Source of the DNA: a virus
IMG/VR virus record: IMGVR_UViG_3300031133_000003
Coordinates: 1-48,100 of that record
DNA: 48,100 nt
Reading direction: 5' to 3' (one strand)
The position numbers and the translations under genes are program-made. How positions within the stretch are numbered: the stretch's first letter is position 1; each line of letters starts with the position of its first letter. A model generated the notes under the pieces. The model worked only from the letters and a program-made list of their open reading frames with translations. It ran no database searches and was not told the origin of the DNA. Below are positions 1 to 48,100 of the stretch, piece by piece.

Positions 1-127
1 GTTCTCCATTTGTAAAGGGCGGGCTAGCTTAAAGCTGTCGGGGCAATGGCTCCAATGCCCACCTAACGGCATCCCTTCATTAAATTCCTTGAATTGTAAT
101 CCCATGTCTGTTATGGCAGCAATTCTG
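1..127. repeat. Exact 127-bp duplicate of 47974..48100 (circular-assembly overlap or terminal redundancy)
   Basis: Read directly: bases 1-127 (gttctccatttgtaaaggg...gcagcaattctg) are identical to the last 127 bases. The unit genome is therefore 47,973 bp. Confidence 0.95.
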
Positions 128-204
128 GCAGTACATCCAACAACCATTCCCAGGTGTTCGCCATAAATGCGCTCTACTAAGTCCCCAACTTTGAACTTAA
201 CCAA
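1..204 (-). CDS. ENK-tail mini-protein a (69 aa), cut by the window boundary
   Basis: TTG start at 204 with GGAGG 6 nt upstream, overlapping the stop of 197..775. Translation is MVKFKVGDLVERIYGE...ARPLQME; the last codons NK plus TAA lie across the junction (=47968..47973). Confidence 0.6.
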   Translation of the reverse strand, partial: MVKFKVGDLVERIYGEHLGMVVGCTARIAAITDMGLQFKEFNEGMPLGGHWSHCPDSFKLARPLQMEN

Positions 205-775
205 GTGCTACCTCCAAACTCTCTTTCAGATAAAAACGCTCTGGCAACAGCTTGACGCTTTCATCCAGAACGTATCCAACCACCTCACCTCGGAACACTA
301 AGCAAGCTTCTCTTTCATGAACACCAACAGCCCAATCACGATGAAAGGGGACAATGCGCGCCTCTTGATTCCTCACTTTCTGGAATGCCTCACCAACATC
401 AGGAAACTGACCAAGCATTGTCTTTCCAATCGCCTTGCTAGCGAAGTTTAAGCGTCCCATACGACGTGCTGGAGGCTCATCTAGGACATTCTTTAGTACC
501 AGGTTCTCATTGTTCAACCCCTGCTTATAACGCCGTACAGGCTTCCTCATAGCCATGTACACATCCTCTCCGTCAATGACATAGCCAAGAGGAGCGTGTG
601 AAGGGTCTAAGTCTAAATCAGCCACTAAAGCTTTGCTGTGCTTGTCAGTTTCTAAATCTGAAACAATCACAGTGTTCTTATCTTCCACCCCCACCACTAA
701 GCAAGGGCGTTGCTTATGAATCACCACAGTGTGGTAGAGGCGGGTTTTAACATCAGCTTCGCTCTCATAACGCAT
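197..775 (-). CDS. hypothetical protein (192 aa), embedded in the amide-ligase island
   Basis: Long ORF. Its ATG overlaps the stop of the upstream ENK gene (TAATG). No motif recognised. Confidence 0.7.
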   Translation of the reverse strand: MRYESEADVKTRLYHTVVIHKQRPCLVVGVEDKNTVIVSDLETDKHSKALVADLDLDPSHAPLGYVIDGEDVYMAMRKPVRRYKQGLNNENLVLKNVLDEPPARRMGRLNFASKAIGKTMLGQFPDVGEAFQKVRNQEARIVPFHRDWAVGVHEREACLVFRGEVVGYVLDESVKLLPERFYLKESLEVALG

Positions 776-1002
776 TATTTATTCTCCATTTGCTTAGGAC
801 GGCACACTGACAATGTACCCTCTTGGTAAGTGTTAGTTGCTCCGTTTTCCCAAGAAACTCTCACCCAGCCTTCCCTGTCATCTGGCTCATTTTCTATAAC
901 ATAACCCTTCACATTCGCTGGGTTGGTGCGCCCGTTCCAATACCTACGCAGCCCCTCTTCGTTGATATTAACTGCTGTACCGAGCCTTGGGGGCCAATTC
1001 AT
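775..1002 (-). CDS. ENK-tail mini-protein b (75 aa)
   Basis: ATGA overlap with the upstream ligase stop. Ends ..CRPKQMENK; its stop overlaps the next start. Confidence 0.65.
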   Translation of the reverse strand: MNWPPRLGTAVNINEEGLRRYWNGRTNPANVKGYVIENEPDDREGWVRVSWENGATNTYQEGTLSVCRPKQMENK

Positions 1003-1823
1003 ACAGCCACCCCCTTCGGAAGAATCAGGCCCTCAGCTTTAATGATGCGTGCTGCGGCTGCCTTGTCGCTCTTGTTGATGATGTTCTGAATGTCACCATA
1101 TTTATCAGCCAGGCAGATGCCCTTATCAATCTGCTCCATAGCATACATGGAAGCTTGATAGGCCCAACGTTTCAGGTTGTCATTGCCCAGCCATTGGTTA
1201 GATGGTGTGCGATATTCCATGCCATAGCGTTTAGGACGGAAGGCACCAGCTTTGCCGTACAGCTCACGACGCTTAGTGTCGTTGTCGTAGAACAGGGAAG
1301 GAAGGCCAATGTAGAAATCAATCTCACGCACCTTAGCTGCAATCCAGCCAATGTAGTCAATGTCATCTACAGGCGCTTCACCCCCAGCTTCTGGAATACC
1401 GAAGTGGATGTGACCAGCAGCACTACGGAAAGGAAGCTCTCCGTTAGGGCGTGGGTTAACAGCCACTGTGTAAGCATCCCAATCTGGCTCGCAGCCAAGC
1501 TCTTTAGCTTTCTCTGGCTGGGCGCGAATGTATTCCAGGCCGAATTCAGCCACAGGCTGTGGAAGAAGCTGATGCTGTGGCACCATTGCTGCAAGGATGG
1601 CTAACACGCCATTGATGTTCTTCATCCAATCCGCTTCGTTGCTTACGGCGTCAATGTTGAACTCAAGAGCCATACCATCCACCTGAACAGCCCCACCAGC
1701 TACCTTCTGTGGATTTTTCTTATCACCTTCAATCAAACCGAAGGCACTAACAGGCACGCCATTCTGTCCTACGAACACCTCTGGGTCTGCACCTAACAGA
1801 TATTTAGTTTTCATCGTGTACAC
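999..1823 (-). CDS. carboxylate-amine (COOH-NH2) ligase, phiEco32-like type 2 / GCS2-glutamine-synthetase-like fold
   Basis: Motifs LLGADPEVF, VQVDGMALEFN, GHIHFG and MEYRTPSN resemble the phage COOH-NH2 ligase family. AGGAG lies 8 nt before the ATG. Confidence 0.65.
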   Translation of the reverse strand: MYTMKTKYLLGADPEVFVGQNGVPVSAFGLIEGDKKNPQKVAGGAVQVDGMALEFNIDAVSNEADWMKNINGVLAILAAMVPQHQLLPQPVAEFGLEYIRAQPEKAKELGCEPDWDAYTVAVNPRPNGELPFRSAAGHIHFGIPEAGGEAPVDDIDYIGWIAAKVREIDFYIGLPSLFYDNDTKRRELYGKAGAFRPKRYGMEYRTPSNQWLGNDNLKRWAYQASMYAMEQIDKGICLADKYGDIQNIINKSDKAAAARIIKAEGLILPKGVAV

Positions 1824-1847
1824 TCCTACGTTTTAAATGATTGTTTA

Positions 1848-1858
1848 TGATAGCATTT
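1848..1858 (-). promoter_or_regulatory. copy 1 of recurrent 11-mer AAATGCTATCA (possible extended -10, TGcTATCAT; TTGTAA sits 16 nt upstream)
   Basis: Minus strand reads TTGTAAACAAATAGCAAAATGCTATCAT in the 38-nt gap before the ligase gene. Confidence 0.35.
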
Positions 1859-1860
1859 TG

Positions 1861-2094
1861 CTATTTGTTTACAAAAGATTTAGGCCCCAATACTTCAAAC
1901 CTATGCGCAAACATTCCATCAAGCCCTTCACACCAAACCAAGGTATCCTCCTCAACAACATCTGTGATATCAAAAGCCTTAACTTTATAACAGTTGCCAA
2001 TAAGAGGGGCATATTGCGAATGTCTGTTGGCTGCACTATCCACTACTCTTACACTGCATCCCTCTCGTATTTTAGTGTAACTTGGCTTTCCCAT
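1861..2094 (-). CDS. ENK-tail mini-protein c (77 aa; tail ..GPKSFVNK)
   Basis: ORF with GGAGAGG before the ATG. Ends AAC AAA TAG although no start codon is adjacent. Confidence 0.55.
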   Translation of the reverse strand: MGKPSYTKIREGCSVRVVDSAANRHSQYAPLIGNCYKVKAFDITDVVEEDTLVWCEGLDGMFAHRFEVLGPKSFVNK

Positions 2095-3277
2095 CGTCCT
2101 CTCCCAGACTAGCAGCTAACAACTTAATCTCTTCACTCAGCTTCTTACGTTCTTCCTCTTCAACAGCGTCAGCTCTCTCAGCCTCAGCAATATCTTCAAG
2201 AGAGAAATAAGTGTTGAGCACCGTATCAATTGTGCAGATGAATCCGCTATAGCTTGAATGTTTCAGCTTAGCAGAGAATACACAATGGTCAAGGTTCCAC
2301 ATCTCATCCAGCAATTGCTCATTAGCAAGGGAGTCAATGTTGTAAATGAACAACGGAGTGCCTTTCAATGTCTCGCAGGTGAGCCGTGCTTTCTGTGCCC
2401 CTGTGCTTGTCTCCACATAGTCGTGAACCCGAGTGACAATAAACTCCACTACGTCCCCTTCCTTCACTCCCTCCGCCTCTAACCAACGCTTGCCGTGATA
2501 ATCATCAATATCCGAAGAGGCGTTGTAGGAACGTTTTGGCGGCTCCCACTTTGGGGCAACGTATGCCACCACAGGGTTTCGCACAACACTAAGCTTATGC
2601 CCCCACTTCATCTTGACATCGAAGACATACTCCGTGTCTACAGCCACTTCTACAGGGTTTTTATCAAGCTCCACGCCCTCACGCCCACAGCCTACATGAA
2701 TCATCCAAGGCTCAGAGGCCCACACTAACGTCTCTCCTTTGTTAGCCGTAGCCCAGAACAGAGGACGTTCCTTATTACGCAGGAAATGGACAGTGTTGTC
2801 TCGCTTGTCCAGCCATGTCAGGGCAGCAGCCCCATTAAGCTTCTCCCACATAGCCTGTGTGTTGCTGTGGTTTAGCTCAGCGTACAATGCTTCGCTGTCC
2901 ACCTCACGCTTAAAGGAATCATGGAAGGCTTCTTTCCAGCCCCATTTAAGGGAGCCGTTATGAGCCCCAATGATGTTATCAAACTCAAATGGATGGGCGT
3001 TCTCAGCGTTGATTGCGCCCTGTGTAGCCCAGCGATTGTGACCAATCAGCACATAGCTCTTACGAGCCAGGGCCTGTGTAAACTCCTTCTTTTCTACAAA
3101 CTCTGCCCCACGGACAGCCTCTTTAACCACTTTAAATTCTGGTTTTTCATTGAAGCCTTGCATGAAGGCTACACCTGTTGAATGTTTGCCACGAAGCTCA
3201 TCTAAGAACAACATAGTCTTAAACGCTTTCTCTTCGTTAACCCCAATCTTTCCTGCAAAGCCCACCATTCCACACAA
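2072..3277 (-). CDS. class-II (Ntn, N-terminal Cys) glutamine amidotransferase-like protein with an unknown ~150-aa C-terminal extension
   Basis: TTG start, then CGMVGFAG (Cys2 nucleophile), plus HNRWATQG and NAHPF motifs. GGAGGTG lies upstream. Confidence 0.8.
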   Translation of the reverse strand: MCGMVGFAGKIGVNEEKAFKTMLFLDELRGKHSTGVAFMQGFNEKPEFKVVKEAVRGAEFVEKKEFTQALARKSYVLIGHNRWATQGAINAENAHPFEFDNIIGAHNGSLKWGWKEAFHDSFKREVDSEALYAELNHSNTQAMWEKLNGAAALTWLDKRDNTVHFLRNKERPLFWATANKGETLVWASEPWMIHVGCGREGVELDKNPVEVAVDTEYVFDVKMKWGHKLSVVRNPVVAYVAPKWEPPKRSYNASSDIDDYHGKRWLEAEGVKEGDVVEFIVTRVHDYVETSTGAQKARLTCETLKGTPLFIYNIDSLANEQLLDEMWNLDHCVFSAKLKHSSYSGFICTIDTVLNTYFSLEDIAEAERADAVEEEERKKLSEEIKLLAASLGEDDGKAKLH

Positions 3278-3278
3278 A

Positions 3279-3368
3279 TTACACCTCCAATAATTTATTT
3301 AAACGTTCAATTGCTTTCTCATGAAACTTAATCCACTCACGAATGAGAGGCTTGGTTGGTTCGGTCAC
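3279..3368 (-). CDS. micro-ORF (29 aa, MTEPTKPLIREWIKFHEKAIERLNKLLEV)
   Basis: GTG start with AAAGAGG 5 nt upstream. Its stop lies 1 nt upstream of the amidotransferase TTG start. It is below the ORF-track cutoff. Confidence 0.3.
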   Translation of the reverse strand: MTEPTKPLIREWIKFHEKAIERLNKLLEV

Positions 3369-3378
3369 AATGGCCTCT

Positions 3379-3594
3379 TTATTTATTTGTGAATGAGGTT
3401 TTAGATAAATGTCGGAAACATCTGGCATCTACATACTGTTTTCTTGTGCCGCCCTCAACCTGCAATCGGAATACTCCATCTCCTCTGTCCTCCAGAATAA
3501 GGCAGCGAGTCTTAATTGGATGGTAGTGCATAATAATTTCTCCACCACCTTCATTTGTGATTACAACTCTATCCCCTACCTTAAACTTGGCCAT
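3379..3594 (-). CDS. ENK-tail mini-protein d (71 aa; MAKFKVGD..., tail ..KTSFTNK)
   Basis: GGAGAG 8 nt before the ATG. N-terminus matches members a and j. Confidence 0.65.
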   Translation of the reverse strand: MAKFKVGDRVVITNEGGGEIIMHYHPIKTRCLILEDRGDGVFRLQVEGGTRKQYVDARCFRHLSKTSFTNK

Positions 3595-4228
3595 TCAATA
3601 AGCTCTCCAGTTTAGACAGATACCATTGTTGGCATGGATGTTCTTTACCAACCATCTCTGGATGAGGCTGGAAGCAGAAGCTGCGTGTCTCTGGATAGTA
3701 GACACTTTCCACTTCCACCTCATCATTCTTAGCCACCAACAAGCCACGCTTCTTGCCAATCTCTGACATATGAAGCTTGATGGTGCTACGCATCTCACTG
3801 CTCTGAGCTAACAGCTTCCCCTTCTTACCAATACGCATCATCTGGTGATGTGTAGAGGTGCAGGGGAATTCATTTCCTGTTTCTAAATCTACTACAGGGT
3901 GGGTGCCTGGAATGGCGTGGTTGTACACGTCCTGATACATCTTGCCACCATTCATCACATTCAGGAACTGACCGCCACGACAGATGCCAGCCATAAATTG
4001 ACCACGCTCTTTACAGGCGTTAAATACAGCCAGCTCTTCGGCATCTCGTGCCTTGCTGCTCCATGTTGTCTCATGCTGATGCTCTCCATACAGCTGAGGA
4101 GAGACATCAGAACCTCCCGTAAACTGAATGATGTCTGCCTTCTCAGCGCTATCTACCAGCTCATAACCCGCTGCCTGGAACATACGAGCGTAAGAAAAGC
4201 CACCACCTACAATATAAACCTTTTTCAT
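3581..4228 (-). CDS. class-I glutamine-amidotransferase-like / peptidase C26 (gamma-glutamyl hydrolase-like) protein
   Basis: GICRGGQ (nucleophile elbow), HHQ and FQPHPE (His-Glu) motifs. Its ATG overlaps the stop of ENK gene e (AAATGA). Confidence 0.8.
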   Translation of the reverse strand: MKKVYIVGGGFSYARMFQAAGYELVDSAEKADIIQFTGGSDVSPQLYGEHQHETTWSSKARDAEELAVFNACKERGQFMAGICRGGQFLNVMNGGKMYQDVYNHAIPGTHPVVDLETGNEFPCTSTHHQMMRIGKKGKLLAQSSEMRSTIKLHMSEIGKKRGLLVAKNDEVEVESVYYPETRSFCFQPHPEMVGKEHPCQQWYLSKLESLLNGQV

Positions 4229-4428
4229 TTGTTCACCATGTGTTTAAGTTTAGGGAGAGGTGAATATAGAGACATCTCTTCCTGATGGTCTTTACTAACA
4301 AACATAACTTGCTTGCTTTCAAACTGGAATACATAGGCGTTATCGTATGAACCCACACATCTAACCTTTGACTCCGGATGCTTGTAAGTACCCTTGCGTA
4401 AGTAGTAACTCCAAAGCTTGAACTTCAT
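4225..4428 (-). CDS. ENK-tail mini-protein e (67 aa from MKFKLW...; tail ..LKHMVNK)
   Basis: ATGA overlap with the stop of the 458-aa gene. The track ORF 4225..4449 starts further upstream. Confidence 0.6.
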   Translation of the reverse strand: MKFKLWSYYLRKGTYKHPESKVRCVGSYDNAYVFQFESKQVMFVSKDHQEEMSLYSPLPKLKHMVNK

Positions 4429-5801
4429 ACACCAGCCGCCTTCTGCCAATCTTCAATAATATCAGCAGCTTGTTCCATTGCATCATCAAATGAAACACCA
4501 GCTGCTCCCCATGCCTTCTTACCACCACCAATAGCGCCCAGCTTTTCAACTACAGGGGCCATGTCAGTGCATTCTCCCCACAGATTGTTGACGCCATAAT
4601 AGTCTGTCTTCTGGCTATACGGCTTATCATTCTGCTTAACTGGCTTGCCGTCAATGAAATTGATGATAGCTTTCTCTGGCATCTGGTCAATGCGGAACAC
4701 TGTGTGCCCTGTGCCAGCCTGAGCAAACTTCCATTTGCCATTGTTAAGAGAGGCACGGCAGCCAAACAGGAACGCTGTGTTAGCGTCCAGTCCCTGCTCC
4801 ATCAGGCCATACCACGCTGCAATCATGTGGGGGTATTCCCAACACTGACGTGTAGCAATGCAAGCACCAGCAACCATCTGTGCGCTGACGTTAGCTGTCA
4901 GGATGTAGCCATTAGCCCTAATCCACTCAGCATCCTTTACAACGAAGGCATCAGCAAATGGGCTGTATCCTGTCAGATAGTTGATGAACGCTGTGAGGAT
5001 TTCAGAAGTGAGCCCCTCTTTAGGGCGTGGTGCCTTAACAGCTGTCAGGATGTATGCTGCTTGCTTACCGCCTGTTCGCTGTAAGCCAGCATGACAGGCT
5101 GCGTGGTAGTCACGATATACAACCTTGCCCTTATCATCTGTCACGTTGTAGCAGGCTGTCTTGCCCTCACCACATTCAGCTTTCAGGAGAGTGAGCGCAT
5201 CAGACAACAAGGCAATTACCTGTTCATCCTCAGCGCTTGCACGCTTTGGGGGCAAGGCAATCTCCACAGCACCAACGCCCATACGCTGTGCTCGTGGAAT
5301 GCGCCATTCTGGAGGTTCAACGGGGTAGATGTCAGAGGCTAAGAAGATGTTAACGTAAGGAGCATCTTCTTCCGGGTCAATAGTATCTCCTTCATGACGC
5401 AGCGTAAGCTTGCCAGCGTGCTCCTCGACATCATCCTTTGTCAGCTCATACAGTTCATCCTCACGGAAGATGAAAGGTTTGCCTTCCCATCCCTCACGCT
5501 CCATGCGAGGAGAGAAGCCGGGGAATGCTGCCTTGTTAGCTGGTTTAGCACACACTTGCATGTCGCTACCTGATGGGTCATACACCCAGGCATTGTCTCG
5601 TGTGTCCAGCTGTAAGATGTTAGTGGTTGTTTGGGTGCCAAGCAGCTGCACTTTAATTGATGCGCCATTGCCAAAGCTTTCCACCAGCTTAACCAGCACA
5701 CCTTTGTTACCGTTTTTAGACAACAGCTTGTTCTTAGCTGAATACGCTACGTAGATTTTACCAATCTCCAGCGCTTTAACATTCAGTTTACGAAATTGCA
5801 T
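4425..5801 (-). CDS. hypothetical protein (458 aa), embedded in the amide-ligase island
   Basis: Long ORF whose ATG follows directly after the TAA of ENK gene f. No motif recognised. Confidence 0.75.
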   Translation of the reverse strand: MQFRKLNVKALEIGKIYVAYSAKNKLLSKNGNKGVLVKLVESFGNGASIKVQLLGTQTTTNILQLDTRDNAWVYDPSGSDMQVCAKPANKAAFPGFSPRMEREGWEGKPFIFREDELYELTKDDVEEHAGKLTLRHEGDTIDPEEDAPYVNIFLASDIYPVEPPEWRIPRAQRMGVGAVEIALPPKRASAEDEQVIALLSDALTLLKAECGEGKTACYNVTDDKGKVVYRDYHAACHAGLQRTGGKQAAYILTAVKAPRPKEGLTSEILTAFINYLTGYSPFADAFVVKDAEWIRANGYILTANVSAQMVAGACIATRQCWEYPHMIAAWYGLMEQGLDANTAFLFGCRASLNNGKWKFAQAGTGHTVFRIDQMPEKAIINFIDGKPVKQNDKPYSQKTDYYGVNNLWGECTDMAPVVEKLGAIGGGKKAWGAAGVSFDDAMEQAADIIEDWQKAAGV

Positions 5802-6005
5802 TTACTTGTTCTCCATTTGTAGTTTAATTTCTTTTACACGCCAAGAAAACATTGCCTCTACTTCCTCCAAAAAGAACAGAAGGTTTTCTTTGCCTTTTTC
5901 GGACTGTGACACAGTTAGCACCCGGCCTATGAACGGCGCATAAGCTGGGTTATATCTGTTCTTTTCACTATCCAGAACTTTAACCTTACTGCCAACTTTA
6001 ATCAT
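5802..6005 (-). CDS. ENK-tail mini-protein f (67 aa from MIKVGSKV...; tail ..IKLQMENK)
   Basis: GAGAGGG 8 nt before the internal ATG at 6005. The track ORF extends to 6056. Confidence 0.6.
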   Translation of the reverse strand: MIKVGSKVKVLDSEKNRYNPAYAPFIGRVLTVSQSEKGKENLLFFLEEVEAMFSWRVKEIKLQMENK

Positions 6006-6109
6006 TTCATAAACCCTCTCTATATGACGTTGTAGGACGTTCAACATAGCAGGCAATACGTTTCCATACCTGCTATAGCAATCTCCCTTCCTGATGCGTT
6101 ACAGGGCGC

Positions 6110-8536: not shown

Positions 8537-8746
8537 TTATTTATTCTCCATCTGCTTGGGAATGGACTTAAACACATCATATCCATAGTATCTATTGTAC
8601 TGTGCTGGACTTAATCGAATGCATCCGTCATCGTCCAAAAGTTTTCCACGCAGGCTGACTGCGTAAACAGTTCCTTCTGTCCAGCCCTCACGTTGCATAT
8701 CTTCTGGCATAGCCACAAGTTTCCACTTAGTGTTTGACATCTTCAT
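8537..8746 (-). CDS. ENK-tail mini-protein g (about 69 aa from MKMSNTKWKL...; tail ..SIPKQMENK)
   Basis: The track ORF 8537..8803 overlaps the upstream gene. An internal ATG preceded by GAGG is the more plausible start, but the start is uncertain. Confidence 0.55.
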   Translation of the reverse strand: MKMSNTKWKLVAMPEDMQREGWTEGTVYAVSLRGKLLDDDGCIRLSPAQYNRYYGYDVFKSIPKQMENK

Positions 8747-8927
8747 CAGGCCTCGTAGTAGTGAGTACGGCAATGCAACGGTCAGCACAGGAGGCATAGG
8801 CAAAGCCTTGATAGGCTAGTGCCTCCATCTCTTCTACAGTGATGGTTGATAAGTCATACGCCAACATAATAGGGCGCATTGTTACAGCGTTGAGCATTTG
8901 ATGACGTTTACGCGTTGATGATAGCAT
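8727..8927 (-). CDS. hypothetical protein (66 aa)
   Basis: AGGAG 9 nt before the ATG. The ATG lies inside 11-mer copy 4. Confidence 0.5.
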   Translation of the reverse strand: MLSSTRKRHQMLNAVTMRPIMLAYDLSTITVEEMEALAYQGFAYASCADRCIAVLTTTRPDEDVKH

Positions 8928-35033: not shown

Positions 35034-35249
35034 TTATTTGAAAAGCTGTTTCTTCAGCTCTTCCAGCCCACCAATCACCTCATCTCCCTCTGTGATGTAC
35101 GGCAACTGACGGACACCCAGCCCTCGTAGATAATCAACATCATAATCTACGCCAGCCATTTTCATTTCAAATTCAATTCCCTTAGCAATCAAGAGAGCTT
35201 TCGCCCTCTGACAATTGATGCAGCCTTCTTTGCTATAGATAATGTACAT
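35034..35249 (-). CDS. glutaredoxin / NrdH-like redoxin
   Basis: CINC active site, then LPYI..G..IGG. Confidence 0.8.
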   Translation of the reverse strand: MYIIYSKEGCINCQRAKALLIAKGIEFEMKMAGVDYDVDYLRGLGVRQLPYITEGDEVIGGLEELKKQLFK

Positions 35250-36319: not shown

Positions 36320-36502
36320 TCAGTCTAGTCCATAGACTCTGTGTACTTCGGTGTAGTAGCCATCAACGTAAGAGTGGTACTCCTTGGGAATTACTCCGGG
36401 GGCAAAACGCTCTAAGTCATAAACTAACTCCCACAGCTTTTCCTCGCTTGATGCCACTCCAATCAGCTTGTCTTCTACTGAATACAGCACATAAATAATC
36501 AT
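36320..36502 (-). CDS. hypothetical protein (60 aa)
   Basis: ATGA overlap with the upstream gene. Confidence 0.45.
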   Translation of the reverse strand: MIIYVLYSVEDKLIGVASSEEKLWELVYDLERFAPGVIPKEYHSYVDGYYTEVHRVYGLD

Positions 36503-36978
36503 TCTAAATCACCCTCACGAGTCCAACGCACAATATCTCCTCCGCTTCCCAAATCTGTACTCATAGCAGCTGCTACAGCGTCTACAGGGTCTCCGCCTTT
36601 AGCCAGGATGTAATTAGCCACTGTGCTGCCTGAACCTAGAGCAAAGTGATTGTCTTCATAAATCTCCAGAATGCCAAAGCAGCTCTTCTCACTGTCTTTG
36701 TTTACCAGGTAGGCACTCTCCTCTGTCACCACAATGGCCTGGAAATCATCCTCACTTTCCAAAGTGGACAGCACATCTAAACCCTCCGCAAGAACAGCTT
36801 TTAGAACTAGCTGGGATGAGGCGTCGCCCGCTAGGGCATAGGCCAAAACCTTTTGCCCCAGGATGGTGGAATCCTTCGGCGTGAATATCTTCTTGAAGCG
36901 GTCGCTCTTCAATTGCAGCCCGGCTGTCATTCGACTGTCCGCTGCTAAGATTCCCCGTGCCCATGCAATTGTCGTCAT
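36499..36978 (-). CDS. Ntn hydrolase of the proteasome beta / HslV type
   Basis: (M)TTIAWARGILAADSRMT gives an N-terminal Thr. An ALGSGS motif sits at the position of the HslV GSGG motif. Confidence 0.65.
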   Translation of the reverse strand: MTTIAWARGILAADSRMTAGLQLKSDRFKKIFTPKDSTILGQKVLAYALAGDASSQLVLKAVLAEGLDVLSTLESEDDFQAIVVTEESAYLVNKDSEKSCFGILEIYEDNHFALGSGSTVANYILAKGGDPVDAVAAAMSTDLGSGGDIVRWTREGDLE

Positions 36979-37267
36979 TATTTCTTTTCTCCAAATCAGC
37001 TAAGAACATAGCATTAGTTGCTACGTGAACAAGGTGGCTCAGGCCACTCTCTTTGTCAATCAACTCACCTTTGTAATACGCCGTAAGATGACGAACCATA
37101 GCGCTAAGATAACGAGAATTACCATCTTCCACCTTTAACCAATTTCCAACACCATATTTGGTGCTGCCCATCTGGAGCGCCTTGCCAACTTCCTCCAGGG
37201 CATATGGCACCTCCCTGAACAGGAGGCCCATGTCTGTCTTGCCATTGTCGTGTTTAATCCCGCTCAA
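36752..37267 (-). CDS. dATP/dGTP pyrophosphohydrolase-like (DUF5664-type) protein; the functional part probably ends near 36975
   Basis: DNGKTDMGLL...ALEEVGKALQMGSTKYGVGNW...RYLSAMVRHL...ESGLSHLVHVATNAMFL. The frame stays open 227 nt into the next gene. Confidence 0.5.
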   Translation of the reverse strand: MSGIKHDNGKTDMGLLFREVPYALEEVGKALQMGSTKYGVGNWLKVEDGNSRYLSAMVRHLTAYYKGELIDKESGLSHLVHVATNAMFLADLEKRNNDDNCMGTGNLSSGQSNDSRAAIEERPLQEDIHAEGFHHPGAKGFGLCPSGRRLIPASSKSCSCGGFRCAVHFGK

Positions 37268-40388: not shown

Positions 40389-40595
40389 TTATTTTACAGC
40401 TGATTTGCTCACAGCAAACACTTGCTCAATACCTTCCGGCTGGAACAACACCATTGTCTCACTACCTGCTTCAATGATGCCAGCCACTTTCCCTACAGCC
40501 CCCTTCTCTAAATAAGAAGTGATGGGCTGGTCATGCTCATCCGTTGTTGGATATGCAATCTGACGCGTTAACACTACGTTCTGACCTGTTCTCAT
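40389..40595 (-). CDS. hypothetical protein (68 aa)
   Basis: Its ATG overlaps the stop of ENK gene h. Confidence 0.5.
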   Translation of the reverse strand: MRTGQNVVLTRQIAYPTTDEHDQPITSYLEKGAVGKVAGIIEAGSETMVLFQPEGIEQVFAVSKSAVK

Positions 40596-40822
40596 TTATT
40601 CTCCCATTGAATTGGTTTCTCTAATTTGTAGTCCATCAAAATGTGTTTAACATTAAGGATGGTGTTCACTCTCCATTCTCCAGAGCCAACAGCGCAGGTG
40701 ACAATCCCATGATTACCAACAACTCCAAAAGGAAGCACGTAGTCGTAATACACCTCCCCTCGATTCTTAGGAACGTATCTCTTACCAAGCTTTAGCTTAG
40801 ATAAGACATCCATCGCACACAT
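40592..40822 (-). CDS. ENK-tail mini-protein h (76 aa; tail ..EKPIQWENK)
   Basis: AGGAGG 5 nt before the ATG. Confidence 0.6.
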   Translation of the reverse strand: MCAMDVLSKLKLGKRYVPKNRGEVYYDYVLPFGVVGNHGIVTCAVGSGEWRVNTILNVKHILMDYKLEKPIQWENK

Positions 40823-41142: not shown

Positions 41143-43062
41143 TTAGTGGATTTCATACCAATTCTTTCCAATTGACGCGTCTCCTATCTGTGGAACTTTA
41201 AACGCGTAGTAATCACTAGCGTCAGCGTAAGCCTTAAGTACAATCTTAGCTACATCCTGAGCAATTTCTTCTCTGCATTCGGTTGTAAATTCATCGTGAT
41301 TGAAGTTTACAATCAAGAAATCATCACCCCATTTGTACCTCTCCGACAAGTATTGATGTGCCAGATTATACGCCTTCGACATAAAAATCGCTTCATCATT
41401 CTGTAAGGTGTAAACTAGAACAGCGTGCTCTGACTGTATGAAGTTCGGGGCACCGTCTATTGATGTCACCCATCCATCGTAGTATTCAAGCTTATTCCAC
41501 TTGTTCATTCTACGCTTAGCTCTCTTTCTCCATTCAGCAGTGAGTTCATCCATAACCCTAGCCTGGGCTGGGAACAACTCACGCAACGCCTCCCTAATCT
41601 CAGCACCAACCTCCTTATTTCCATGGACCATTCTACCTAGCTTTGGGTCCCCGGCTCCAAACTTCCAGCCAAAGCCAATGTTTTTCCCTGCACCGCGCTT
41701 AATCCGCTTTAGGCCATACTTATCACAAATCTTATTAACGCGATTCATAACAAGTGTGTGTGCATCCGTGCCCTGCTCCTTGTCTCCCTCCAAAAGGATG
41801 CGTGTAAGCTCTGGGTCGTTAGCTCTTGATGCGAGCATTCTGTCCTGGCAACCCGCTGCATCGCACCCGACTAGTGTATACCCCTCACGAGCAATGAAAC
41901 ACTTACGCATCATGGGACCCATAAATGCATCAGCATTAGGGACGTTAACAATCTGCTTGTGCTTCATCCTCCGGGTGTCTGCCAGACCCGATACGATGCT
42001 CGATAATCTTCCATCCTCCCTCACGTTAGCGAGATAACCGCGCATAATAGAAGCTCGGTCATTCACACGAGAACGAAGAACAATCAGATTACCAGCTACC
42101 CCCTCAACACCCTCAAAGGTAGTATCTTTGTTCAGCTTAGGTGATGTGTTCTCCCCAGCATCATTTGTATTCCAAGCATCTGGAATCCAGCCGTTATCTA
42201 GGAGGAATCTCTTAACCTCATCATCACTACCTAGCTTTATCTTCCTCACCTCAACCCGCGAGAAAGGAGCTGCTACAATGTGGCTGTCCTCTCCAAACAC
42301 CTTCAACACTGACTCAGAATAGATAGGTTTCTCAGGGGAGCTGCCCTTCATGAACACTTTTTTAACGTATTTGTAAGGGCCTCCACCCTTCTCTTTAGTT
42401 TCAGCTGGTTTGCAGATATAGGGAAGACTAGCCTCCAGCATCCGGTCTATTCGCCCCACCCAATGAGCAGCAAGATTAAGTGAGCGCTCGATGTGTTTAA
42501 CGTCTAAGCGCCAACCTGCATCCTCCTGCATTTGTAGATTCTCAAACAACTTGAAGGTCAGCATATGTGCATCCCTCCAATTGAGGCCCTTCCCTTCCTT
42601 CATCAGCTCATGGTACACAGCAACGTTAATGGCTGTATCTTCCGAACAACGATGAAGCATCTCCTCACTGAATGTCTCCCAATCTTCATGCTCAGGCTTA
42701 CCGCGCCCTACACGATATCCCCAGCAGCCTAAGCCATGTGGGCTCTTCATCGCCTTTGGGTCTCCCCTGGCTGTCAAAGGGGCCTGACGATTTGGACATT
42801 GCAAACGAGACATGAGGAGCGTGTCAACCTTCTTCCCTTTATACTCATATCCTAACACTTTCTTCACAGCTGGTAGGTCATAGCTGAGCACATTATGTCC
42901 AATTAACACATCACAGCTGTCCATGAACGCTACAGCTTCCTTCATCTGATGTGGGCGGAAAATATCAACTTGCTTGTCATCCAGGCTACGGAACACCATG
43001 CAGTGAATTGTGTCGGGTGTCAAGCCATTCGCCTCTATGTCGAACACCCTTACCTTTGTCAT
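41143..43062 (-). CDS. family-A DNA polymerase with 3'-5' exonuclease domain
   Basis: Exonuclease motifs VFDIEANGL and HNVLSYDLP. Polymerase motifs DAAGCQDRMLA, RGAGKNIGFGWKFG and NFNHDE. Confidence 0.92.
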   Translation of the reverse strand: MTKVRVFDIEANGLTPDTIHCMVFRSLDDKQVDIFRPHQMKEAVAFMDSCDVLIGHNVLSYDLPAVKKVLGYEYKGKKVDTLLMSRLQCPNRQAPLTARGDPKAMKSPHGLGCWGYRVGRGKPEHEDWETFSEEMLHRCSEDTAINVAVYHELMKEGKGLNWRDAHMLTFKLFENLQMQEDAGWRLDVKHIERSLNLAAHWVGRIDRMLEASLPYICKPAETKEKGGGPYKYVKKVFMKGSSPEKPIYSESVLKVFGEDSHIVAAPFSRVEVRKIKLGSDDEVKRFLLDNGWIPDAWNTNDAGENTSPKLNKDTTFEGVEGVAGNLIVLRSRVNDRASIMRGYLANVREDGRLSSIVSGLADTRRMKHKQIVNVPNADAFMGPMMRKCFIAREGYTLVGCDAAGCQDRMLASRANDPELTRILLEGDKEQGTDAHTLVMNRVNKICDKYGLKRIKRGAGKNIGFGWKFGAGDPKLGRMVHGNKEVGAEIREALRELFPAQARVMDELTAEWRKRAKRRMNKWNKLEYYDGWVTSIDGAPNFIQSEHAVLVYTLQNDEAIFMSKAYNLAHQYLSERYKWGDDFLIVNFNHDEFTTECREEIAQDVAKIVLKAYADASDYYAFKVPQIGDASIGKNWYEIH

Positions 43063-43280
43063 TTGTTCTCCAATTGAATAGGACGAACTTTCTCAACTAT
43101 AACCTGGTCATAGTGCTCTTTCAACATATCCAGGTACTCTTCGGATGACTGCCCTTCTCCCCAAGAGCCTTCATCAACGCACTCCTCTGAGTTGATGGAT
43201 AGCTCCTGCCATTCCTTATGGTTCAGATATACCACCCACCCAGCTTCTTTATGAGTTACTTTATGCGTCCATTTCGCCAT
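43059..43280 (-). CDS. ENK-tail mini-protein i (73 aa, acidic; tail ..VRPIQLENK)
   Basis: Overlaps the sigma gene end by 20 nt. Its stop overlaps the polymerase ATG. Confidence 0.6.
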   Translation of the reverse strand: MAKWTHKVTHKEAGWVVYLNHKEWQELSINSEECVDEGSWGEGQSSEEYLDMLKEHYDQVIVEKVRPIQLENK

Positions 43281-43749
43281 ACTTCTCTTTCACCTCTCTC
43301 CGAAATCGCATTACAGCCATCTTAATGGCTCCCTCTGACAGCCCTGTAATCTTAGATGTCTTCTCCACTTTCTCTCCACTAATCATGCTAAGATAGACAG
43401 CAGAGCGATGTGGCTCATCAAGCTTCTCCATTTCTTGCAACACTTCCCCAAGAACACCAGAGGCTCTCATTTCATCAGCAAGCTCCCCGCTCTCCCACAT
43501 CCACTCTTCCAGCTCCTCCCCTGATACATTATCTCGTAAGTATTCACGGATAACAGTGCCTAGCACATATTTGATGTAATAGTCCATCTCAAGGATGGGC
43601 TTCTTATTTCCAGCGTATTGAAGGCAACGTGTGTACGCCTCACTGACACAATCCTCATGCCAGAACTCCCCCACTTGACGTTTAGCCATAGCAAGGATGG
43701 GCTTACGTTGCTCCTCAAAGTGTTTAGTGATTAGTTCGACTGTGTTCAT
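43261..43749 (-). CDS. ECF-like sigma factor (regions 2 and 4 only)
   Basis: Region-4 HTH LDEPHRSAVYLSMISGEKVEKTSKITGLSEGAIKMAVMRFRREV. Region-2-like EDCVSEAYTRCL and YIKYVLGTVIREYLRD. Confidence 0.7.
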   Translation of the reverse strand: MNTVELITKHFEEQRKPILAMAKRQVGEFWHEDCVSEAYTRCLQYAGNKKPILEMDYYIKYVLGTVIREYLRDNVSGEELEEWMWESGELADEMRASGVLGEVLQEMEKLDEPHRSAVYLSMISGEKVEKTSKITGLSEGAIKMAVMRFRREVKEKYGEMDA

Positions 43750-45557: not shown

Positions 45558-45788
45558 TTATTTGTTAATAAAAAGACGCGGTGAGATAAGTGTCAGGGCC
45601 TTAGCCGAAATCACATCTCCTTTACCGATGTATCTGTCGCTTTCTTTGTGTGAGACTACCACAACCCTGACTTTCTGTTGTTCCTCGAAAACAGCCTCTA
45701 CCCGCATAATTGCAGCTGAGGTTGTGTATCCATAAACTCCATCAGCATACGCATTCCCGGTTGCCTTATCTCCAACCTTAAATTTCAT
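45558..45788 (-). CDS. ENK-tail mini-protein j (76 aa; MKFKVGD..., tail ..SPRLFINK)
   Basis: ATGA overlap with the ATP-grasp stop. Its own stop is followed by a separate AGGAG for the primase. Confidence 0.6.
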   Translation of the reverse strand: MKFKVGDKATGNAYADGVYGYTTSAAIMRVEAVFEEQQKVRVVVVSHKESDRYIGKGDVISAKALTLISPRLFINK

Positions 45789-46546
45789 AGCATCTCCTTA
45801 AATCGTTTAGCATAGCCATCTAGCGTAGTGCCTGACAAACCTGGGGCTGTGTTTACCTCCAACACTACATACAAATCATCCTTCTTATTCCAGACGATGT
45901 CTACAGCACCGAAGTCTAAACCAAGAGCTTCTACAGCTATGATAGCATTCTTGCTTGCCACTTCATTCTCTTCAACACCTTCACGAGCAAAGATGAATCC
46001 ACCGTCAAGATTGCGTATCTGCCAATTCACCTCTTCCTTTGGAACGTCAAGCTTACGCGCCTTACGCTGAATGTCCACCACCTTACCCATAAAGACATGG
46101 TAACGATATTCTTCCTGCTTCTTCACATAGGCAGTATACAGCGGAGCATCCACCAAATCATCTGCACTGTCAGCCATAACGATGCCGACACCACTATGCC
46201 CGTTAAGAACAGTGCGACACACAACGCTACGAGAATCATCTTCCTGGAGATACGCACTAGCTTGTTCCTTGCTTGTGAAGAATGGGGGAATAGAGACATT
46301 CGCTTGTTGGAAAAGTTCAAAAGATTTTAATTTATTTGAAGCGTTACGGATGTTCTCTGGTTTGTTGAGGATGTGACATGCTGCCACTTGGTCAGGAAGA
46401 GCAGCACTTCCCCAGTTGATTACACGCTTTAATTGGCTGCCTCTAAACTTGCTGTTGCCATGCTTAATGCGTTTAACTTCTAATGCCTGGGACAGAGACT
46501 TCGCCCCTTCACTGAATGGGTTATGTGAATAGATGTATGTCTTCAT
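45785..46546 (-). CDS. ATP-grasp ligase (RimK-like)
   Basis: VVCRTVLNGHSGVGIV, EEYRYHVF, and LGLDFGAVDIVWN..LYVVLEVNTAPGL. Likely start is MKTYIY at 46546, overlapping the stop of ENK gene k. Confidence 0.8.
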   Translation of the reverse strand: MKTYIYSHNPFSEGAKSLSQALEVKRIKHGNSKFRGSQLKRVINWGSAALPDQVAACHILNKPENIRNASNKLKSFELFQQANVSIPPFFTSKEQASAYLQEDDSRSVVCRTVLNGHSGVGIVMADSADDLVDAPLYTAYVKKQEEYRYHVFMGKVVDIQRKARKLDVPKEEVNWQIRNLDGGFIFAREGVEENEVASKNAIIAVEALGLDFGAVDIVWNKKDDLYVVLEVNTAPGLSGTTLDGYAKRFKEML

Positions 46547-46737
46547 TTGTTTTCCATTTGAGTGAATATTTTCTTTAGGTTGTGTGCCCAAGTACACCAT
46601 CTTCCGTCTCCAAATGAAGGCAAGATGCTTTGAACCGTACAGGTAGCATCTCCCGGCTCATGCCTGTAGATATAAACCTTCTCTCCGGCCTTTAGGTATT
46701 TTCCCTCATTAGCTATTACAACATGCGTAGCTTTCAT
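46543..46737 (-). CDS. ENK-tail mini-protein k (64 aa; tail ..IFTQMENK)
   Basis: ATGA overlaps at both ends. Confidence 0.6.
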   Translation of the reverse strand: MKATHVVIANEGKYLKAGEKVYIYRHEPGDATCTVQSILPSFGDGRWCTWAHNLKKIFTQMENK

Positions 46738-46964
46738 TTGTTCTCCCAATTAAGAATCACCTTACTAACATCCCGCTCAACATTGTGAGACCAGACATCA
46801 AACACTCGTCCAGGTGCTAGCCGGTTGAGCCCCTCACAGAAATTCTTTACAACAACAAACTTAGCACTATCTCCATTCCGGCTAACGAGCTTAGCATGAA
46901 CGAACAGATTATCATGCCGTCTATGCATCCTCACCTTATACAAGGTTTTCTTATTCAGCTTCAT
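46734..46964 (-). CDS. ENK-tail mini-protein l (76 aa; tail ..VILNWENK)
   Basis: ATGA overlaps at both ends. Confidence 0.6.
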   Translation of the reverse strand: MKLNKKTLYKVRMHRRHDNLFVHAKLVSRNGDSAKFVVVKNFCEGLNRLAPGRVFDVWSHNVERDVSKVILNWENK

Positions 46965-47161
46965 TTGTTCACCATGTACTTGGGCTTGACAGATTTCATC
47001 ACCCACTGTAGACGCTCTAGTTGCTCTTTTGTATAGTCTCCAAACCACCCTCCAAAAGAGCCATCCGCATAAGCAGCTCTCACCTTACGGCTGCGCTCGT
47101 TCCATTCAATATTATGGCTTAAAACCGTTTCAATAGTTCCAATGTGTGTCGCTTTATCCAT
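46961..47161 (-). CDS. ENK-tail mini-protein m (66 aa; tail ..VKPKYMVNK)
   Basis: TAATG overlap with the amidoligase stop. GGGAG 7 nt upstream. Confidence 0.6.
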   Translation of the reverse strand: MDKATHIGTIETVLSHNIEWNERSRKVRAAYADGSFGGWFGDYTKEQLERLQWVMKSVKPKYMVNK

Positions 47162-47967
47162 TACCAATCTCCCATATACGCGTATTGTTGAACACGACGA
47201 ACACTGTCACGAATAGCATCATCAAATGCTGCTGTCCATTCAATGTCCTTAGCAAATGGCCCTAACACCTTAGTGAAGAAGCCATAGCTGCCCATCATAG
47301 AAGAATCAGAGACAATCTGTGCTGGGTTATCAATCTCACGAGCCAGATGTTTGAGGTGTTGCAAAAGACGGCACCACCAAGCTACAGCCTCTAAATCCCC
47401 ATCAGCACGCCATGCACGGAATTCAACGGAGCCATAGTCACCCAATGCCTTAACATTGATTGAAGCGTAACGCAGGTCATCTGTGTGCAAGATGCGCAGG
47501 TCTTGCTGCTTAACGCTCTCCATCAACATCTCAATCAGGTATTCAGCATCTGAGGCGCGGAGACAGAACAGGTTGCCAATGCGATGTTCCCCGCATTTGT
47601 TAACCAGAATTTCCTCAACCACCAGATAAAGACTGATGTAGTTGAACAGCTGTGTCACTGTCAGGTCAGAACAGTTGATATGAACGTGCACACCAGCGTT
47701 AGGGCTGTTCTTAATCTTACTACCTTGTGTCTCCCAGGCTGCTTTCAGCTCTGCCAGAGCAGCGTTCTCAGCGCCAAAGGGAATGGGTTTACGGAGGACA
47801 TATTCATATGATTCACCACGCAGGGAGCCATCAGCTTCGCTCTTCCAAACCTTTGTGTCTACATATGGGAGGTTGGCTCCCTCTGTTTCAATCTCAATGC
47901 CCTGATGGTCTGTGTATTGTCCATCAATGCGCAGGAGAGATTTCACTGTCTTTTTTTCGTATTTCAC
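47161..47967 (-). CDS. Amidoligase_2-type carboxylate-amine ligase
   Basis: GIEIETEG, NAGVHVHIN and YGSVEFRAW motifs (glutamine-synthetase/GCS2-like ligase pattern). GTG start directly after the TAA of ENK gene a. Confidence 0.7.
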   Translation of the reverse strand: MKYEKKTVKSLLRIDGQYTDHQGIEIETEGANLPYVDTKVWKSEADGSLRGESYEYVLRKPIPFGAENAALAELKAAWETQGSKIKNSPNAGVHVHINCSDLTVTQLFNYISLYLVVEEILVNKCGEHRIGNLFCLRASDAEYLIEMLMESVKQQDLRILHTDDLRYASINVKALGDYGSVEFRAWRADGDLEAVAWWCRLLQHLKHLAREIDNPAQIVSDSSMMGSYGFFTKVLGPFAKDIEWTAAFDDAIRDSVRRVQQYAYMGDW

Positions 47968-48100
47968 TTATTTGTTCTCCATTTGTAAAGGGCGGGCTAG
48001 CTTAAAGCTGTCGGGGCAATGGCTCCAATGCCCACCTAACGGCATCCCTTCATTAAATTCCTTGAATTGTAATCCCATGTCTGTTATGGCAGCAATTCTG
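47968..48100 (-). CDS. 3' part of ENK-tail mini-protein a (the same gene as 1..204, seen in the duplicated end)
   Basis: ..SFKLARPLQMENK then TAA at 47968-47970. Confidence 0.6.
   Translation of the reverse strand, partial: RIAAITDMGLQFKEFNEGMPLGGHWSHCPDSFKLARPLQMENK
47974..48100. repeat. Exact 127-bp duplicate of 1..127
   Basis: Read directly. Confidence 0.95.

Follow-up and report, generated by a model that had tools for sequence, protein, structure and literature searches.

A further copy of a podophage amide-bond gene block, interspersed with ENK-tailed mini-genes

LUZ24-, phiEco32-, RIO-1-, PA11- and CW02-like podophages carry, between their early genes and the primase/helicase gene, a block encoding an ATP-grasp ligase, an Amidoligase_2 protein, a COOH-NH2 ligase, a class-II (Ntn) glutamine amidotransferase-like protein (Ntn-GATase) and either a Peptidase_C26 (C26) hydrolase or a gamma-glutamyl cyclotransferase (GGCT). 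The block was described as a seven-gene "peptidoglycan modification cassette" in RIO-1, phiEco32, 7-11, PA11, tf, MR299-2, LUZ24, PaP3 and CW02 (Duhaime et al. 2017, PMC5498523), and papers of 2023-2025 still term it putative and credit Iyer et al. 2009 with a cell-wall or superinfection role. It is known, too, as an operon for unusual peptide bonds or gamma-glutamyl amides. Here we describe such a block in a 48,100-nucleotide stretch of viral DNA (IMG/VR record IMGVR_UViG_3300031133_000003, positions 1 to 48,100; the window), in which, unlike in the known podophage cassettes, small open reading frames (ORFs), the mini-genes, stand at nearly every junction. The island is a new copy of a known gene block, not a new system. 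What we add is a definition of the seven-gene cassette that includes two proteins, X and Y, the large unnamed family to which X belongs, and the separation of the mini-genes from the enzymes.

The phage block shares with Puu/Pau polyamine catabolism the pairing of a glutamine-synthetase (GS)-like ligase (PuuA/PauA) with a C26 hydrolase (PuuD/SpuA), and in the PDB the phage C26 comes closest to Lin1909, SpuA-type proteins and PuuD. Unlike Puu/Pau, however, the phage has no oxidase/dehydrogenase steps, it carries two extra ligases, the Ntn-GATase, X and Y, and its scores lie far below the equivalog cut-offs. In ergothioneine biosynthesis, the GCS2 ligase EgtA and the Ntn amidohydrolase EgtC handle gamma-glutamyl as a transient group, and butirosin biosynthesis employs the ATP-grasp protein BtrJ, the Cys-His transferase BtrH and the cyclotransferase BtrG. 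The likeness to these two pathways is one of logic only, a gamma-glutamyl group being ligated and later removed, with no homology shown between X and BtrH or between Y and a carrier protein.

Enzymes and gene order of the cassette

The block encodes the following enzymes:

999-1814 (minus strand): phiEco32-type COOH-NH2 ligase of the GS-like fold family, with GADPE, GHIHFG and EYRTP motifs; PF14395.
2072-3277 (minus strand): Ntn-GATase, with a TTG-TGT start giving MCGMVG and with HNRWATQG, HNG and DSE motifs.
3581-4228 (minus strand): PuuD/SpuA-like class-I amidotransferase-fold hydrolase (Peptidase_C26), with GICRGGQ, HHQ and QPHPE motifs; phrog_7218.
45785-46546 (minus strand): RimK-family ATP-grasp ligase; 31.1 bits against a cut-off of 21.
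47161-47967 (minus strand): Amidoligase_2, a second GS-like carboxylate-amine ligase, with a GTG start abutting the TAA of mini-gene f; 45.4 bits against a cut-off of 22.

Family assignments were judged against the curated Pfam gathering cut-offs, with PHROGs as a second source in agreement. The COOH-NH2 ligase matches COOH-NH2_lig (PF14395) at 33.8 bits against a cut-off of 25, matches phrog_3815 over its full length at 7e-79, and its gene is 75.8% identical at the nucleotide level to the 'putative COOH-NH2 ligase' of Klebsiella phage Klyazma; a sequence search found no PDB relative of the protein. The initial annotation had the family right, but its ORF of 999..1823 begins at GTG 1823, and the start is most likely ATG 1814, judging from the Shine-Dalgarno (SD) sequence GGAG 8 nucleotides (nt) upstream of it.

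The Ntn-GATase matches GATase_6 at 66.8 bits against a cut-off of 27, with GATase_7 and GATase_4 also above their gathering scores, and carries the motifs of a class-II amidotransferase, its Cys2 and RWAT/HNG motifs aligning to the GlmS glutaminase domain (1xff). It falls below the NCBIfam cut-offs for GlmS, PurF and EgtC, the EgtC match being weak, and its C-terminal ~150 amino acids (aa; residues ~245-401, window 2072-2545) have no Pfam, NCBIfam or PHROG match. No fused acceptor (synthase) domain is recognisable. The protein may supply ammonia in trans or be an amidohydrolase of the EgtC kind. The C-terminal region diverges faster than the glutaminase domain, with the TC6 and LUZ24 proteins aligning over the first ~200-225 residues only. 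It may be a lineage-specific adaptor domain.

The C26 protein matches Peptidase_C26 at 68.5 bits against a cut-off of 20.5, with a GATase match above its gathering score too. Its GICRGGQ motif aligns to the nucleophile elbows of 3fij (Lin1909; ICRGMQ), 7d4r (SpuA-type) and 6vtv (PuuD), and the Pfam match, which is full-length, has QPHPE at its end; the motifs of the Cys-His-Glu triad are present by sequence, and NCBIfam matches to gamma-Glu-GABA hydrolase are below cut-off. The ATP-grasp ligase is nearest to the RimK/MptN/LysX family, and its NCBIfam scores for MptN, RimK, CofF and LysX are all below cut-off.

All motifs and ORFs quoted in the initial annotation are present on the minus strand where it placed them, and the profile hidden Markov model check that it had proposed bears out its COOH-NH2 ligase, class-II amidotransferase and C26, each above the curated cut-off. 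By Pfam, there are indeed three carboxylate-amine ligases and two amidotransferase/hydrolase enzymes in one block, the right half contributing Amidoligase_2 and the RimK ATP-grasp, and the link to phiEco32-type neighbourhoods (Iyer et al. 2009) is correct. The remark that no product had been established also holds, as we found no experimentally shown product of the cassette in the literature up to 2025.

Window positions 1-127 are identical to 47974-48100 over 127 nt, so that the window is a circular assembly of a phage genome of 47,973 base pairs, cut inside mini-gene f. With the 127-nt overlap removed, the island is a single contiguous minus-strand block, and the 'junction' across which its two halves had been joined is an assembly artefact. 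Among deposited phages, the nearest are the Klebsiella phages Klyazma and KpnP_VR7901 (Zobellviridae, Citrovirus), to which nucleotide similarity is detectable in the COOH-NH2 ligase gene only, at ~75% identity. In order of transcription, the block reads mini-gene a, X, mini-gene b, C26, mini-gene c, a doubtful 29-aa ORF, Ntn-GATase, mini-gene d, COOH-NH2 ligase, mini-gene e, Y, mini-gene f, Amidoligase_2, three mini-genes, ATP-grasp and one more mini-gene, downstream of which lie the primase/helicase, a sigma factor, a mini-gene and the DNA polymerase. It is transcribed leftward, as part of a long early/middle operon running on into the replication genes. An ATP-grasp, two GS-like amidoligases and an Ntn amidotransferase thus stand in one co-directional block together with a gamma-glutamyl-cleaving enzyme, here C26, in an early/middle operon beside the primase/helicase and in conserved gene order.

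The gene order of the cassette is common to Klyazma, CVT22, TC6 and two metagenomic relatives (L005 and L006), and the PA11-like phage TC6 matches it gene for gene, X and Y included. An X-family gene lies directly upstream of the C26 gene in every context examined. Three distant metagenomic contigs, in which X is ~25% identical, encode X, C26 (overlapping X) and Ntn-GATase; two of them go on with a COOH-NH2 ligase, a ~180-aa protein, Amidoligase_2 and a ~255-aa protein, while the third ends after the third gene. One of these contigs has a GGACT gene between C26 and Ntn-GATase, and LUZ24 has GGCT in place of C26. Homologues of X and Y were not found in LUZ24 gp14, gp15 and gp17 by hmmsearch and hhalign, being either absent or beyond single-sequence sensitivity. 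The PADLOC defence-system models gave no match among the seven cassette proteins.

We give about an even chance to the reading that this conserved cassette encodes a pathway located in the cytoplasm, with a small molecule of the amine or peptide type as its substrate. Directly supported are the family memberships, the catalytic signature motifs in the sequence, the conserved co-occurrence and gene order, the replacement of C26 by GGCT in LUZ24 and the presence of both C26 and a gamma-glutamyl cyclotransferase in one distant contig. Gamma-glutamyl amides are bonds of the kind that GS-like ligases form, and PuuD/SpuA, GGACT and GGCT all split them with release of an amine, which favours a small-molecule or peptide pathway built around a gamma-glutamyl-amine intermediate. 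Specifically, a GS-like ligase would use ATP to attach glutamate through its gamma-carboxyl to an amine, and the second GS-like ligase and the RimK-like ATP-grasp would add further amide-linked residues. The Ntn amidotransferase would pass ammonia from glutamine to an activated carboxylate or, as EgtC does, cleave a gamma-glutamyl amide. The PuuD-like C26 would then take the gamma-glutamyl group off, a task for which other phages would use a gamma-glutamyl cyclotransferase instead or alongside, and Y would serve as an SH3-like adaptor or carrier without enzymatic activity.

Later papers credit Iyer et al. 2009 and Hardies et al. 2013 with the standing prediction, modification of peptidoglycan precursors: the ligases would add residues to, or amidate residues on, the stem peptide of cytoplasmic UDP-MurNAc-peptide or lipid II, and the resulting surface change would block superinfection or alter lysis. 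All cassette proteins appear cytoplasmic, which suits chemistry at the precursor level. Stem peptides, moreover, contain a gamma-D-Glu linkage and are amidated by a ligase and glutaminase pair (MurT/GatD), as this prediction would have it. The cassette, however, contains no Mur ligase, transpeptidase, flippase or membrane protein, and the nearest characterised relatives of the hydrolase (PuuD, SpuA and GGACT) act on free gamma-glutamyl amines. Furthermore, a late surface change would be of little gain to a strictly lytic phage, and we found no experiment on the matter. We therefore consider peptidoglycan modification possible but unlikely.

Proteins X and Y

The initial annotation regarded the 458-aa and 192-aa proteins of the island as orphans, but both are members of the conserved core cassette:

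4425-5801 (minus strand): X, 458 aa; phrog_34254; predicted model with a predicted local distance difference test (pLDDT) score of 83.9.
197-775 (minus strand): Y, 192 aa, with tandem SH3/KOW-like barrels; phrog_11055; model pLDDT 90.2.

The AlphaFold model of X shows N-terminal tandem Tudor/SH3-like barrels (~residues 1-160) and a C-terminal uncharacterised domain of ~230 aa (window 4425-5231). In the C-terminal domain, Cys236, Ser280, Arg318, Glu322 and His366 are invariant and His237 is nearly so, and an alignment of 32 distant members shows a Cys (usually in A-C-H-A), Ser-Pro, Arg-x-x-W-Glu, an Ala and a His that are invariant or nearly so. X may be an enzyme, judging from the invariant Cys, His and Glu. 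By its profile matches, X is a representative of a large unnamed family without a Pfam entry, recognised here: a profile search gave 2,221 matches at E <= 0.001 among 1.84 billion cluster representatives (50% identity), most of them standalone 280-310-aa proteins that match the profile over its positions ~190-455. Ten members were compared with Pfam and none belonged to a family there, while two of six longer ones tested show faint SH3-like N-termini. Unlike most members, which are standalone proteins of ~290 aa, X has gained N-terminal Tudor/SH3-like domains in this lineage. Full-length relatives are found in CVT22, Klyazma, Asterion, VR7901, Pecta and CW02, relatives of the C-terminal domain in the PA11/TC6 group, and structural relatives in RIO-1 and Cronobacter phage GAP52.

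In Y, an alignment reveals a conserved basic loop, R77-K78-P79-x-R81-x-x-K84-Q85-G86, in which K78 is nearly invariant and the other named residues are invariant. Its homologue in TC6, TC6_050, occupies the same position. Foldseek against the PDB gave only weak matches for either protein (E > 0.01), to Tudor-type structures (53BP1, SGF29 and HERC2) for the N-terminal barrels of X and to eIF5A and Kin17 for Y, and no fold match for the C-terminal domain of X; searches of the PDB by sequence and by profile yielded no usable match.

These folds bear on the idea that a host protein, or Y itself, is modified, by RimK-like C-terminal glutamylation or by an isopeptide on a conserved lysine, with the SH3/Tudor-like modules recruiting the target. 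Tudor/SH3/KOW-like modules often bind proteins or nucleic acids, and GGACT-type enzymes cleave gamma-glutamyl-epsilon-lysine. The barrels of X and Y, the invariant basic loop of Y with K84-Q85-G86 and the proximity of the ATP-grasp to the RimK/MptN/LysX family would all fit. The fold matches are weak, though (E > 0.01, template-modelling scores of 0.2-0.3), no target is identifiable, and PuuD-like hydrolases are small-molecule enzymes, so that we see protein modification as an outside chance, a little below the peptidoglycan prediction.

Hypermodification of a DNA base, the ligases decorating a reactive base in phage DNA, had been offered in the initial annotation and is very improbable. The cassette adjoins the replication genes, and in some viral contigs genes for thymidine hypermodification are accompanied by amidoligase and amidotransferase domains (Lee et al. 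2021, PMC8989533). However, no supporting genes were found in the window: a search among its early genes turned up no 5-hydroxymethyluracil (5-hmU) DNA kinase, aGPT-Pplase, dUMP/dCMP hydroxymethylase, TET/JBP or DpdA, and the kinase, transferase and hydroxymethylase that define thymidine hypermodification clusters (5-HMUDK plus aGPT-Pplase) are absent. X was also considered as an aGPT-Pplase and rejected, hhalign of the X family giving a probability of 0.4% against phage M6 gp51 (aGPT-Pplase2) and of 0.1% against gp55.

Mini-genes and their junctions

Thirteen ORFs of ~64-88 aa ending in hydrophobic-x-N-K lie on the minus strand of the window and none on the plus strand, and 11 of the 13 have no PHROG match:

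5802-6056 (minus strand): mini-gene a, likely starting at ATG 6005 (67 aa); ends QMENK, its TAA directly followed by the ATG of X; unmatched in Pfam and PHROG.
4225-4449 (minus strand): mini-gene b, likely starting at ATG 4428, which overlaps the TGA of X; its end, HMVNK, is joined to C26 by an overlapping ATGA.
3379-3594 (minus strand): mini-gene c, MAKFKVGD... SFTNK, with a 14-nt overlap with the end of C26.
1861-2094 (minus strand): mini-gene d; ends SFVNK-TAG and is not coupled to the ligase.
775-1002 (minus strand): mini-gene e, weakly MIB_HERC2/SH3-like; its end, QMENK, is joined to Y by an overlapping TAATG.
1-204, with its last 6 nt at 47968-47973 (minus strand): mini-gene f, starting MVKFKVGD.
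46961-47167, 46734-46962 and 46543-46737 (minus strand): three consecutive mini-genes, each joined to the next by AAATGA.
45558-45788 (minus strand): mini-gene before the primase/helicase; ends LFINK.
43059-43280 (minus strand): mini-gene before the DNA polymerase.
40592-40822 and 8537-8803 (minus strand): mini-genes elsewhere in the early region.

The mini-genes are thus not confined to the amide-bond island, standing also ahead of the DNA polymerase and primase/helicase genes, and they are absent in most cassette-bearing phages (TC6 and the three distant contigs). Across five genomes, 66 mini-gene ORFs fall into 51 BLAST clusters after trimming of the tail, and two N-terminal classes recur, xKFKVGD (17 of 66) and (APEW)ATH (16 of 66). 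L005, the closest relative, shares 69-96% identity in the enzymes (96% in the COOH-NH2 ligase) and at most 42% in the mini-genes, with six of the eight detectable homologues of window mini-genes at another junction. The Amidoligase_2/ATP-grasp junction is a hotspot of mini-gene gain and loss, holding three in the window (46543-47167), one in L005 (8799-8984) and four in L006 (16717-17502) between flanking enzymes that are 81-90% identical in the three genomes. The notion that each enzyme is 'fed by' a mini-gene finds no support in this distribution and lack of synteny. Jointly with the pathway reading, and at the same even chance, we take the mini-genes to be hypervariable accessory ORFs of 60-80 aa put in at gene junctions, a phenomenon separate from the enzymes.

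Of the overlapping stop/start joins reported in the initial annotation, 10 of the 13 mini-gene stops do overlap or abut the next start, while two junctions are open, with a 46-nt gap at 1815-1860 and one of ~100 nt at 3278-3378. A 14-nt overlap like that of mini-gene c with C26 recurs in Klyazma and CVT22. The junction consensus CAA-ATG-GAG-AAY-AAA-TRA(TG) comprises GGAG, an A-rich spacer of 5-8 nt and the start codon, and the minus strand holds eight copies of the motif G[AT]GAAYAARTRR where shuffles predict 0.13, the plus strand a single one. In the tails, 8 of 9 Glu codons are GAG and 12 of 13 Lys codons are AAA, compared with 54% GAG and 36% AAA in the long genes of the phage. Position -3 is E (GAG) or V (GTG), either of which pairs with the anti-Shine-Dalgarno sequence, and mini-genes ending F-x-N-K without GGAG have their own SD after them. 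The endings are LENK in Klyazma, LENE or LINE in 19 of 20 CVT22 mini-genes and K-terminal in the window phage. From this codon bias and the K/E difference between lineages, the last four residues appear to be mainly a nucleotide-level coupling signal, the terminal residue not being conserved as an acceptor. The -ENK ending would then be mainly a translated coupling junction, with GGAG or GGTG as SD, AAYAAA as spacer and a stop overlapping the next start. Programmed frameshifting joining mini-genes to enzymes was considered and rejected, as no X XXY YYZ slippery site occurs and stop and start codons are coupled in the ordinary ATGA/TAATG manner.

Upstream of its last four codons, the tail reads [KR]-P-x-Q/S/Y-M in the window lineage, with Pro at -7 in 17 of 35 and with synonymous codon variation, and this protein-level part could be a shared docking or turnover signal. 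The tail is uniform within a genome and different between genomes. We tentatively suggest, as an unlikely but possible account, that tail and junction, together [KR]-P-x-Q-M-[EV]-N-K-stop/ATG in the window lineage, form a 'socket' by which unrelated accessory genes are swapped, duplicated and moved between essential early genes with coupling kept intact.

That the mini-proteins are substrates or carriers, the ligases extending or tagging their shared C-terminus in Pup- or LysW-like fashion, as the initial annotation had proposed, is the least probable reading of all. In its favour, all 13 small proteins have the uniform C-terminal tail, which is partly conserved at the protein level, and the CVT22 tails end in Glu like RimK and LysX substrates. 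Against it, the cassette occurs without mini-genes in TC6 and the three distant contigs, mini-genes also precede DNA polymerase and primase, and their bodies show neither relationship nor synteny. Moreover, the last residue, K in some lineages and E in another, is not the invariant acceptor of Pup or LysW, and the GAG/AAA bias points to a nucleotide-level constraint, the ribosome-binding site of the next gene.

A further small ORF lies in the gap before the Ntn-GATase:

3279-3368 (minus strand): doubtful 29-aa ORF with a GTG start, absent in L005 and L006.

Klyazma carries an HNH nuclease at this place. A promoter and terminator scan showed no enrichment over shuffles. The sole sigma-70-like site inside the island (1847-1874, minus strand; TTGTAA-16-TATCAT with an extended TG) sits in the island's only sizeable untranslated gap, a short way ahead of the COOH-NH2 ligase gene. 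The same leftward operon encodes a small sigma factor (Sigma70_r4_2; 43261-43749, minus strand), annotated in Klyazma and CVT22 too, and a glutaredoxin-like protein (35034-35249, minus strand). Also on the minus strand, a dGTP_diPhyd_N ORF (36752-37267; domain at residues 3-97) overlaps the next ORF out of frame by 227 nt; the latter (36499-36978; 159 aa, starting MTTIAW) has no Pfam match, and the arrangement at 36499-37267 may reflect overlapping genes, a frameshift or a wrongly called end.

Assessment and significance

Several points weigh against a small-substrate pathway with separate mini-genes. Neither our computations nor the papers found gave a substrate, product or acceptor, and all NCBIfam equivalog scores are far below cut-off, which precludes the transfer of any specific activity. 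For X, a catalytic role is read from invariant residues, with no fold match, and the Tudor/SH3/KOW-like modules of X and Y suit a macromolecular target as well as a small one. In addition, the upstream part of the mini-gene tail, conserved at the protein level, is not accounted for by the ribosome-binding site.

The cassette is spread over several short-tailed phage lineages, including relatives of therapeutic phages against Pseudomonas and Klebsiella, and was first predicted in 2009. Our analysis narrows the working unit to X, C26, Ntn-GATase, COOH-NH2 ligase, Y, Amidoligase_2 and ATP-grasp, without the mini-genes. The nearest relatives of the hydrolase point to free gamma-glutamyl amines as intermediates, and the invariant residues of X provide a clear set for mutation. 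The mini-genes, for their part, are an unusually regular case of fast accessory-gene turnover within an operon, and the socket, if true, would be a phage-internal gene-cassette system evolving in concert within each lineage.

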